Assembly (NCBI RefSeq): GCF_049969415.1
Contig: NZ_JBMFOX010000020.1
Location: 1 to 22,516 of the forward strand
Direction: 5' to 3'
Origin: Candidatus Hadarchaeum sp.
GTDB taxonomy: Archaea; Hadarchaeota; Hadarchaeia; Hadarchaeales; Hadarchaeaceae
Length of the DNA: 22,516 nt
The notes beneath the pieces are model-generated. The model was not told the DNA's origin. It saw nothing but the letters and a program-made list of their open reading frames with translations, and searched no databases. The translations under genes and the position numbers were made by a program. Within the stretch, counting starts at the first letter, position 1. The number at the start of each line of letters is the position of its first letter. This document shows, in pieces, positions 7,931 through 12,291 of the stretch.

Positions 7931-9892
7931 ATGGAGCTTGAGAGAAGTCGGCTAATTTTGGATGGCATTCAAGAATTGATTGCCTATCAGGATTTAGAGA
8001 ACAGAGTTTTGTGGGCCAACAAGGTATCGGGGGATTCGGTTGGTTTAGCCCCCGAAAAGCTGGTGGGCAGATTTTGCTATGAAATCTGGCACCGGCGGGA
8101 CCGGCCCTGCGAAGGGTGTCCGGTGGTAAAGGCGAGAGAAACCGGCCAGCCTCAGGAGGCCGAGATCACCACTCCCGATGGAAGGGTATGGTACATAAGG
8201 GGTTATCCAGTTCGTGACGAGAGGGGCCGGGTTTTGGGCGTTATCGAGATTACTCACGAAATAACGGAGCGGAAGCAGTTGGAGTTAGAGATGCAGAAGG
8301 CGCGGGAATTGGCCGAGGGCATCGTTGACACCGTTCGTGAGCCCCTGTTGGTCTTGGACGCCGATTTGAAGGTGGTTTCAGCCAATCGGACCTTTTACCA
8401 GACTTTTAAGGTAACTGCTGAGGAGACCGAAGGACGCCGTATCTATGAGCTCGGCAACCGACAGTGGGACATTCCCAGACTTCGGGAACTGCTTGAGGAA
8501 ATCATTCCTCCGAACACCTTCTTTGAAAATTTCGAGGTGGAACATGATTTTCCAAACATCGGGCGCAGGATCATGTTGTTAAATGCCCGTCGGATACACA
8601 CCAAGACCAACAAGACGCTGCTAATCCTCCTTGCGCTGGAGGACATCACCGAGCGCAGGCGGTCGGAAAGAGCATTGAGTGAGTCTGAGGAGAAATACCG
8701 GTCCTTGGTCGAATCCTCGGACGACTCGATATATCTGCTTGACCGGGAACTGAGATTCCTCTTCGCGAATCGGGCAGCGCTGAACCGGCTGGGGCTGACA
8801 TCAGAACAAGTGTTGGGGAAATCCTTTGCCGAGATTTATTCCGCAGAGGCTGCGGAGAGGCTTGCTGAGGCGGTGAAGCGGGTGTTGGAGACAGGCAAAC
8901 CTGTGCAGCAGGAGCACTGGAGCGAGAGACTTCATGGCGCCTTTCTCAGAACCTTAAGCCCAGTAAGAGACCCGAATAGTGGCGAGGTCACGGCCATCAC
9001 CGTGGTCTCCAAAGAGATAACCTCCCTCAAGATGATGGAGGCCTCCCTCCGTGAGGCAGGGGAAAGATTGAAGGCGATAATTGACTTTTCCCCGGATGCC
9101 ATCATCATCACCGATTTGCAGTACAAGATAATTGACTGCAACCTCTTCGCGCTGAAGTTGCTCGATATAGAAAGCAAGGAGGAGTTGATAGGCAGAGACA
9201 TGCTGGGGTTGATCTCTCCCCAGACTCGCAACGAAATTGTCCGGAGCATTCAGGAAGCCATGGAGACGGGAGTGGTAAGAGACGTGAGACATGAGCTGAT
9301 GAACGGCTATAGGATTCCGGCCGAAATTTCCGTTTCCGCAGTACCAGACGCGACGGGTAAACCATCGTCACTGGTTTTCGTGATAAAAGATATCACAGAA
9401 CAAGAGCGGGAAAAGGAGCGGAGACGGGAGTTCATTTACCGGGTGAATAACATCTCTCCCGGAGATTGCTGTCTCCACAACTCCCACCAGGCCTTGTACA
9501 ACATCTTCGCGCAGCTAACTCTGCAAGGTGTGCCTGGAATTTGCTTTACCCGGGAAAAGCCGGAGGATCTAGCCAAGTTTGGTATCACCAGAGACAAGGT
9601 GGTCGTTATTTCTTCAGTGCCTCTCGCCGGGTATGAGACGTTGGACGGACTCCAGCAGGTCAGCCTAAGGATTGCGGAATTTCTCAAAGAAAATCGGAAA
9701 TCGGTGGTGTTGCTGGACGGTCTCGAGTATCTTGTAAGCCGATGGGGTTTCGACACGGTTTATCGCTTTCTCCAAGAAAAGCGCTTCAGCTTTTTGGAGA
9801 GCGAAGCCGTTCTTCTCGTTCCCGTGAACCTGTCGGCCTTCAGCGACCGGGAGCGGGCCCTCATCTCCACCGAGTTAAAGGTTATCGGCTAA
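7931..9892 (+). CDS. Cytoplasmic sensor protein with four PAS/PAC domains and a C-terminal DUF835 domain; may start at ATT 7880
   Basis: Four PAS repeats ending in (D/E)IT motifs (EITERK, DITERR, EITSLK, DITEQE). The C-terminus has 'GICFTREKP', 'VVLLDGLEYL....GF..V..FL', 'L..RERALI..EL', matching DUF835. No H-box or HATPase motifs and no TM helix. Confidence 0.85.
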   Translation: MELERSRLILDGIQELIAYQDLENRVLWANKVSGDSVGLAPEKLVGRFCYEIWHRRDRPCEGCPVVKARETGQPQEAEITTPDGRVWYIRGYPVRDERGRVLGVIEITHEITERKQLELEMQKARELAEGIVDTVREPLLVLDADLKVVSANRTFYQTFKVTAEETEGRRIYELGNRQWDIPRLRELLEEIIPPNTFFENFEVEHDFPNIGRRIMLLNARRIHTKTNKTLLILLALEDITERRRSERALSESEEKYRSLVESSDDSIYLLDRELRFLFANRAALNRLGLTSEQVLGKSFAEIYSAEAAERLAEAVKRVLETGKPVQQEHWSERLHGAFLRTLSPVRDPNSGEVTAITVVSKEITSLKMMEASLREAGERLKAIIDFSPDAIIITDLQYKIIDCNLFALKLLDIESKEELIGRDMLGLISPQTRNEIVRSIQEAMETGVVRDVRHELMNGYRIPAEISVSAVPDATGKPSSLVFVIKDITEQEREKERRREFIYRVNNISPGDCCLHNSHQALYNIFAQLTLQGVPGICFTREKPEDLAKFGITRDKVVVISSVPLAGYETLDGLQQVSLRIAEFLKENRKSVVLLDGLEYLVSRWGFDTVYRFLQEKRFSFLESEAVLLVPVNLSAFSDRERALISTELKVIG

Positions 9893-9917
9893 GGGTACAG
9901 TGGTAAATAAATCGTGC

Positions 9918-9977
9918 GGGCTCAGACTGGAGTTTCCGTTCATTATTTTTCACGTAACCCTCTTTTCCTCATCGCCC
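9918..9977 (-). ncRNA. Box C/D 2'-O-methylation guide sRNA
   Basis: Minus strand: GGGC-G-[C: AUGAGGA]-AAAGAGGGUUAC-[D': GUGA]-AAA-[C': AUAAUGA]-ACGGAAACUCCAGU-[D: CUGA]-GCCC. It is 60 nt with a terminal GGGC/GCCC stem and 12/14-nt guides. The D' guide is complementary to archaeal 23S UAACCCUCUU. Confidence 0.85.
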
Positions 9978-10018
9978 ATCATTAATGTAGGTTCATTATC
10001 TTTTTAGGTTTAGGTAGT

Positions 10019-12291
<2,273 letters not shown>

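Follow-up and report, generated by a model that had tools for sequence, protein, structure and literature searches.

A conserved box C/D sRNA of the Hadarchaeia with a D' guide predicted to target helix 69 of 23S rRNA

The locus and the anatomy of the sRNA

The stretch of DNA analysed here (the window, 22,516 nucleotides) is contig C20 of a Hadarchaeota MAG, labelled G000, a bin of 138 contigs and 1.47 Mb that is 95% complete. The element with which we are concerned, the window sRNA, occupies 9977-9918 on the minus strand and sits inside a 126-nt gap between two convergent genes. Its start lies 41 nt past the stop codon of sudA, a SudA/NfnB-like gene on the same strand (10019-11464; Pfam Fer4_20, 145 bits, and Pyr_redox_2, 132 bits) next to which follows a SudB/NfnA-like gene. 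The convergent neighbour on the plus strand (7931-9892) encodes a protein with four PAS domains and a DUF835 domain, and ends 26 nt from the sRNA. In many genera outside genus g1 a convergent ORF apparently ends only 2-3 nt from the 3' stem of the sRNA and, judged by eye, encodes a conserved C-terminal peptide of the ELEV-x-LQE type (L013-L023, L167-L186). The window sRNA itself is overlapped by no ORF of 40 or more amino acids.

Read along the minus strand from 9977 to 9918, the element of about 60 nt has the order GGGC-G-AUGAGGA-AAAGAGGGUUAC-GUGA-AAAAUA-AUGAACG-GAAACUCCAGU-CUGA-GCCC. The terminal stem, stem I of the C/D K-turn, is formed by GGGC (9974-9977) and GCCC (9918-9921). The C box AUGAGGA (9966-9972), whose fifth position is G, A, C or U across the family, is followed by the 12-nt D' guide AAAGAGGGUUAC (9954-9965), positions 2-11 of which are antisense to UAACCCUCUU of 23S rRNA. 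Then come the D' box GUGA (9950-9953), positions 1 and 2 of which pair with positions 6 and 5 of the C' box, a loop AAAAUA (9944-9949) that is free to vary in length and sequence in relatives, and the C' box AUGAACG (9937-9943). The D guide GAAACUCCAGU (9926-9936) is 11 or 12 nt long, the G at 9937 belonging either to it or to C', and the D box CUGA (9922-9925) is invariant in our alignment A1 (see below). The element has the hallmarks of a C/D sRNA, a RUGAUGA-like C box towards the 5' end and a CUGA towards the 3' end with a short stem joining the termini, and its spacers of 12 nt (D') and 11-12 nt (D) fit the length of about 12 nt found in this class.

A first-pass annotation of the window had placed the C, D' and D boxes and the GGGC/GCCC stem exactly here, and had taken AUAAUGA (9946-9940) as the C' box. 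That string is indeed present, but 9943-9937 is the better position for the C' box. The internal motif that is invariant in relatives, and throughout A1, is AUGA-N-C (9943-9938), 3 nt downstream of AUAAUGA; the register was moved because of this invariance and because the motif covaries with the D' box, and the move gives the D spacer its usual length of 11-12 nt.

The covariation is that of a structured internal motif. Among the 15 sequences of A1, the pair D'2-C'5 is U-A in 12, C-G in two and A-U in one, and D'1-C'6 is G-C in 14; the covariation score of the D'/C' pairs was reached by none of 500 shuffles. In the wider set (34 parsed members of 35) D'2-C'5 is U-A in 15, C-G in 11, A-U in two, G.U in two and unpaired in four, and D'1-C'6 is G-C in 27, A-U in six and unpaired in one. 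These are the two Watson-Crick pairs that adjoin the tandem GA of a K-loop, and covariation of this kind is the behaviour expected of a K-loop bound by L7Ae. Pairing in the terminal stem is complete across the 15 sequences (60 of 60 cells) and includes one compensatory change from G-C to C-G.

When the whole architecture, terminal stem included, was searched for under relaxed criteria, one locus appeared in the 1.47-Mb genome, the window sRNA, and none in the reversed genome or in any of five triplet-shuffled genomes, which places the element beyond chance. Neither strict nor relaxed pattern scans recovered any other C/D sRNA in G000, and a half-unit scan combined with 9-mer rRNA complementarity yielded noise (63 real matches compared to 77 in the reversed-guide controls). 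A possible second C/D sRNA lies at L229:137-197 (G000:C9:27036-27096, plus strand), with a GCGC-type terminal stem, a C box GCGAUGA/AUGACGA, CUGA, UGAUGA, an A/T-rich tract upstream and a 9-mer antisense to LSU at about nt 1940; its scores are sub-threshold (snoPyro_CD, 17.9 bits; our own model R1, 18.1 bits).

An Rfam scan of the window gave no match at the gathering threshold. With E up to 10 there were 15 matches; 12 of them come from C/D-box families that align over their full length to 9915-9979 of the minus strand, with snoU54 (25 bits) and sR20 (23.3 bits) scoring highest. The minimum free energy fold is unremarkable (z = -1.42), as expected for the C/D RNA class.

Transcription

Upstream of the sRNA a TATA-like box, UAAAAAGAUAA (9996-10006, minus strand), preceded by an A-rich, BRE-like stretch, is located at about -29 to -19 relative to the first G of the stem. 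Judged by eye, nearly all of the 33 members have an A-rich, BRE-like stretch followed by a TATA-like box at an equivalent distance, some 20-40 nt ahead of the stem, whatever the upstream gene. In 12 of 32 loci (genera g1, g8, g9 and g11) sudA precedes the sRNA on its strand, at distances from ~40 to ~780 nt, and in the other 20 it does not. Since the BRE/TATA-like element is conserved whatever the neighbour and the linkage to sudA is confined to 12 of 32 loci, a promoter of its own is favoured over the co-transcription with sudA that had been proposed at first pass and is unlikely to be needed; the window sRNA is probably transcribed from its own BRE/TATA-type promoter. Immediately 3' of the sRNA a T-rich tract, UUUAUUU (9905-9911, minus strand), may serve as an archaeal oligo-T terminator, and many relatives likewise have T-rich stretches behind the sRNA; a search for a terminator-like hairpin at the locus gave none. 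A sigma-70 promoter and terminator scan, which is inapplicable to archaea, returned a single 'GATAAT' match that does no more than overlap the TATA-like box.

Conservation and drift across the Hadarchaeia

A BLAST query of 96 nt, comprising the sRNA and 15-18 nt of flank per side, located the element in 14 of 40 relatives (E <= 2.3e-4), and the full-length matches begin and stop at the borders of the sRNA. The 15-sequence alignment of the sRNA (A1) is invariant in the stem, the boxes and all ten core columns of the D' guide; variation falls in the flanks, the D'-C' loop, position 5 of the C box and most of the D guide. The covariance model R1, built from A1, matches 58 of the 65 genomes of the class, including 23 of the 25 high-quality ones, mostly as one full-length copy. 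In G000 its single match, at 86.2 bits and spanning 9915-9979, is the window sRNA. The conservation of boxes and D' guide in related genomes, on which the first-pass annotation had staked its reading, is borne out. The element at 9977-9918 is a real, conserved box C/D sRNA.

The guide is not equally constant everywhere. The target UAACCCUCUU is invariant in those 23S loci of families f1, f2 and f5 that show it (12 of 25 rows), and the f5 guides carry one internal mismatch to it. Genus g8 has gone further, with a guide in G021 that sets an A opposite the target C and a guide in G014 that lacks any H69 match. In f4 the target reads UGACUCUCUU, and the f4 guide AAGGGGGUUA pairs with it only by way of three G.U wobbles. 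A search for compensatory change between guide and target across the class found none. The f5 mismatch, the decay in g8 and this lack of compensatory change indicate that the guide is not under selection in all members.

The 23S rRNA of the host lineage

Three distinct archaeal 23S genes, full or nearly so, are present in the G000 bin, on C19, C41 and C68, together with further 23S fragments on C73, C74, C80, C84, C85 and C87. By reading, the H69 flank is of the bacterial type on C74 and C85, and C73 and C80 hold other archaeal-type sequences. SSU genes or fragments of other organisms are found on C41, C62 and C69, and the rRNA loci of foreign organisms are L002-L008 and L037-L039; the presence of rRNA from several other organisms in the bin calls for care with any rRNA-based inference.

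The three exon blocks of C19 share 97.3-99.3% identity with the 23S gene of the same-genus genome G001, which has no introns, and the 23S genes of C41 and C68 are ~66-76% identical to C19. Removal of two insertions from C19 leaves an rRNA of 3053 nt that aligns without gaps to the G001 23S at 98.2% identity, and we take C19 to be the lineage's own 23S because of this gapless match to an intron-less relative. The two insertions, of 822 nt (intron 1, C19:17710-18531, which is L001:3541-4362) and 798 nt (intron 2, C19:19101-19898, which is L001:4932-5729), both encode a LAGLIDADG endonuclease (Pfam LAGLIDADG_3, 51 bits, and LAGLIDADG_2, 132.5 bits).

The D' guide and helix 69

Against the spliced 23S of its own lineage the D' guide forms ten contiguous Watson-Crick pairs with UAACCCUCUU (nt 2033-2042), and the fifth guide nucleotide upstream of D', a G, faces nt 2036 of the spliced 23S, which is the first C past the H69 loop. 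A guide of at least 8 bp to rRNA or tRNA with a target in the N+5 position is thereby found for the D' side of the sRNA; the D side has none. The guides of G001 and G016 pair with their own 23S over 10 of 10 positions in the same register, and in all three genomes H69 is the single best match of the guide in the 23S. When the D' guide was shuffled, 12 of 1000 versions reached ten pairs anywhere in 23S, 16S or 32 tRNAs, which taken alone is a modest p-value; the case for helix 69 is built on the invariance of the guide in f1 and f2, on the exact register and on recurrence of the element in other phyla. The H69 of G014 is unchanged despite the decay of its guide (L167:2001-2064 for G014; L184:2001-2064 for G021).

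The presumed E. coli number of the target, C1920, combines standard E. coli numbering with a published offset. In the alignment of Dennis et al. (2015; BMC Genomics 16:632) E. coli A1912 corresponds to A2178, and with the offset of 8 their C2186 becomes C1920. The ten pairs and the C1920 equivalent had both been put forward at first pass, and the numbering agrees with this offset. Taken together, the D' guide very probably directs Cm formation at the C1920-equivalent of 23S helix 69.

A target interrupted by an intron

The first-pass annotation had held that a host 23S lacking UAACCCUCUU would refute its reading. In the DNA that is the situation encountered, as the 10-mer is contiguous nowhere in the rRNA genes of the assembly; in the spliced rRNA it is intact. 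The 822-nt intron splits the ten nucleotides 8+2, such that exon 1 ends in ...GUAACUAUAACCCUC and exon 2 starts with UUAAGGUAGCG. With intron 1 inside the target, the full 10-bp guide duplex is available only after splicing, and 8 of 10 pairs are available before.

An intron at the same site is present in nine of 25 H69 loci (G000, G002, G011, G023, G025, G029, G037, G041 and G060). The guide is kept in the eight of these genomes whose sRNA was read, that is all except G041, with one substitution in G060. Local folding predicts that the exon-1 segment AUAACCCUC pairs with the 5' end of the intron, GGGGGUUGU, a pairing that is probably part of the splicing helix, and GGGGGUUGU resembles the sRNA guide GAGGGUUAC. 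One could imagine, as a speculative and rather doubtful proposal, that in intron-bearing Hadarchaeia the exon-1 segment is contested between the guide and the LAGLIDADG intron, so that Cm would be a splicing-dependent late mark of a helix 69 that has been spliced correctly; in the opposite direction, the splicing helix might form under the influence of the sRNA. A full-text literature search found no work that couples an rRNA intron to a methylation guide.

The D guide

The second guide of the window sRNA has no convincing target. Its best rRNA or tRNA match has eight pairs (LSU 672), a value equalled by 502 of 1000 shuffles, and this match shows no covariation in relatives. The D-guide stretch of A1 has only two invariant columns, and no target was found when the D guides of f1 relatives were compared with their own or a proxy 23S. 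The D guide of f1 is therefore best described as an apparent orphan, a class that is common in archaea and accounts for 28% of guides in six Pyrobaculum species (Lui et al. 2018). A 12-pair match of the D guide at C2:282 was rejected as chance; it is antisense to an IS240-type transposase gene and no RNA family is present there. The IS240-type DDE transposase gene is positioned at the contig end (L041:209-1105, which is G000:C2:209-1105, minus strand).

The members from the sister families f2 and f5 (L172, L175, L176, L179 and L180, each at ~2001-2063) are built differently. With the G000 23S as proxy, and a flank that is identical in the f2 and f5 23S fragments examined, their D guide, of the GCNNGCAAGGUAUU type, can form 10-11 Watson-Crick pairs with a second site, AAUACCUUGC, at a distance of 20 nt on the 3' side of the H69 target. 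By this pairing the f2 and f5 RNAs belong to the classic double-guide type, and in the f1 lineage the second target has seemingly been lost. The f4 D guides (L169, L173, L177 and L181), for example UUUUAACUCUCUUU, resemble the sense 3' strand of f4 H69, by which likeness they are largely complementary to their own D' guide; one of them makes 14 pairs with the proxy 23S around LSU nt 529, three of these being G.U. The two g8 genomes G014 and G021 share the same D guide, GCUAAACUUCCAU, which with the decay of their D' guide suggests that function may have shifted to a D target.

Guides to the same site in other archaea

Guides for this nucleotide are already on record. In supplementary file 1 of Dennis et al. 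(2015) C2186 is the D' target of at least Mma sR104, Mka sR47 and Sac sR20. In sR104 of Methanococcus maripaludis and sR47 of Methanopyrus kandleri the D' guide is AAGAGGGUUA, which follows the C box immediately and has the register found in the Hadarchaeal RNA. The window sRNA likewise carries AAGAGGGUUA 3' of its C box, one nucleotide before D', and complementary to the 3' strand of H69. The boxes of sR104 and sR47 are the canonical AUGAUGA and CUGA, whereas the Hadarchaeal ones are AUGA-N-GA with D' GNGA and C' AUGA-N-C. The D guides differ as well; in that file Mka sR47 is assigned to 23S G2163 and Mma sR104 is without a predicted D target, whereas the Hadarchaeal f1 guide is an orphan.

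Relatives of sR104 in the Methanococcales score 39-46 bits against the Hadarchaeal R1 model, like distant Hadarchaeal members, a range that arises partly by construction since the loci were picked by C box and guide pattern. Their D guide is ACUUACCCGA, which we take to be antisense to the nearby H71 region.

In Pyrococcus and Thermococcus the same antisense element recurs in Rfam family RF01273, sR34, where the consensus uAAGAGGGUUAG is followed by the D box in the N+5 register. Here the element takes the D position in the 3' half, whereas in the window sRNA it takes the D' position, and the second guide of sR34 is unrelated. Two Thermococcus loci score 76.5 and 66.9 bits against sR34; the window falls below the 40-bit gathering threshold of this family, which is absent from the 15 Rfam matches (E up to 10), and the guide element alone is common to the two. 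Compared by its listed targets, the crenarchaeal sR20 of Sulfolobus acidocaldarius is similar in its D' target C2186 and has a nearby D target, U2222 (Dennis et al. 2015). The Rfam family named sR20 (RF01140), which matches the window at 23.3 bits, has AAAGAGG at the start of the D' guide in common with the window sRNA.

A pattern of 16 fixed bases was scanned across species-representative genomes (~600 Gb) and gave at least 120 loci, with a few hundred chance matches estimated for a scan of this size. Of the 120 loci listed, 27 passed the architecture filter. Outside the Hadarchaeota these come from Methanothermococcus, Methanocaldococcus, unclassified archaea and a MAG of the Hydrothermarchaeota, and each has the element as its D' guide. 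Public contigs with this element bear the label Hadesarchaea or Hadarchaeota.

Given the assignments of Dennis et al. (2015) and Rfam sR34, guide and target were already known, and the novelty implied at first pass was overstated; what is new here is the Hadarchaeal member with its non-canonical boxes. In a literature search none of the 12 top-ranked papers, out of 1,226, joins Hadesarchaea or Hadarchaeota to box sRNA, fibrillarin or snoRNA. A P. furiosus RiboMeth-seq paper (PMC7758197) refers to a further publication for its list of sites, and in its passages no experimental mapping of the helix-69 position was found.

Protein machinery and the bacterial counterpart

G000 encodes the proteins of the C/D machinery, namely fibrillarin (317.5 bits), Nop5 (246.6 bits) and L7Ae (106.5 bits); the genes for fibrillarin and Nop5 are adjacent on C2, and there are two L7Ae-family genes. 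A profile search of G000 for TlyA (TIGR00478) gave a best score of 30.5 bits relative to a cut-off of 185.8 bits, so that no protein passes. TlyA is the bacterial 2'-O-methyltransferase for 23S C1920 (type II also for 16S C1409), and type I enzymes modify C1920 only, as stated in PMC12805891. Nucleotide and predicted chemistry are the same in the two systems, but TlyA is a stand-alone protein rather than an RNA-guided RNP and has no homology to the sRNA. The window sRNA is thus an analogue of TlyA by functional convergence only and not a member of that family.

Proposed mechanism and alternative explanations

From the computed anatomy, conservation, covariation, complementarity and protein machinery we infer transcription, RNP assembly and methylation in the following manner. 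L7Ae would be bound at two places, the C/D K-turn of the terminal stem and the internal K-loop of C'/D', after which Nop5 and fibrillarin would assemble on both. The 12-nt D' guide would then pair with UAACCCUCUU on the 3' side of helix 69. Fibrillarin positioned at D' would methylate the 2'-OH of the C that faces the fifth guide nucleotide, nt 2036 of the spliced 23S. In G000 the full 10 bp would form only on spliced rRNA, the LAGLIDADG intron site being inside the duplex. We consider it likely that this is the correct overall explanation, a box C/D sRNA whose D' guide directs fibrillarin to the C1920-equivalent of 23S through a duplex on the spliced rRNA. The headline of the first-pass annotation, a box C/D sRNA with a D' guide to C1920 in helix 69, accordingly gains support from conservation, the structure of K-turn and K-loop, the 10/10 pairing, the N+5 register and the RNP proteins.

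The alternative that fares best accepts a genuine C/D sRNP and denies the modification: the D' guide might act mainly or solely as a folding chaperone of helix 69 and domain IV, or be a guide in decay, and no Cm would be made. The g8 and f5 guides, which tolerate mismatches at or beside the target nucleotide while the RNA is retained, are in keeping with it, as is the target that is split and masked by an intron in nine of 25 H69 loci; weakened guides may still aid folding (Lui et al. 2018). The host's own genus and most of f1 have ten invariant core nucleotides, perfect pairing and an exact N+5 register, which is the constraint that a catalytic guide predicts, and we regard the chaperone or decay reading as unlikely.

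The D' guide might also have its real target in another RNA, be it a tRNA, another non-coding RNA or an mRNA, with the match to helix 69 a coincidence. Shuffled guides do reach ten pairs in rRNA or tRNA (12 of 1000), and the comparison included 32 tRNAs only, from an incomplete bin. This explanation would have to account for helix 69 being the single best match in the 23S of three genomes, for an H69 match in every Hadarchaeal sRNA that was compared with the 23S of its own genome, and for the presence of the element in complete C/D sRNAs of Methanococcales, Methanopyrus, Hydrothermarchaeota and Thermococcales. The obvious common and conserved target across those phyla is 23S H69, which for the non-Hadarchaeal lineages we infer, and a different target is very improbable.

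A 3'-UTR or terminator element of the Nfn-type sudA/sudB operon, or a chance collection of box-like motifs, could be suspected from the position 41 nt past the sudA stop codon on the same strand and from the 12 of 32 loci with sudA upstream, but is effectively refuted by the comparative data, with sharp-bordered conservation in the 20 loci that lack sudA, a promoter-like element of its own, no terminator-like hairpin found, covariation in the K-loop and an architecture that occurs zero times in six control genomes.

Implications

The predicted methylation guide adds an unannotated core RNA gene to the Hadarchaeota, and more lineages are now seen to possess the same guide for the helix-69 cytidine that TlyA methylates in bacteria. 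According to a 2021 review (PMC7994747), M. maripaludis has only seven C/D sRNAs, and H68-71, at the subunit interface, are a conserved hotspot of methylation. That an organism with seven C/D sRNAs keeps this guide strengthens the view that the position is among the more widely conserved RNA-guided sites in archaea. In practical terms, the covariance model and the corrected box register can be used to annotate the family. Finally, the one unusual feature, a target that extends across the insertion site of an rRNA intron, would provide a natural system in which to ask whether guide methylation comes before or after the splicing of archaeal rRNA.
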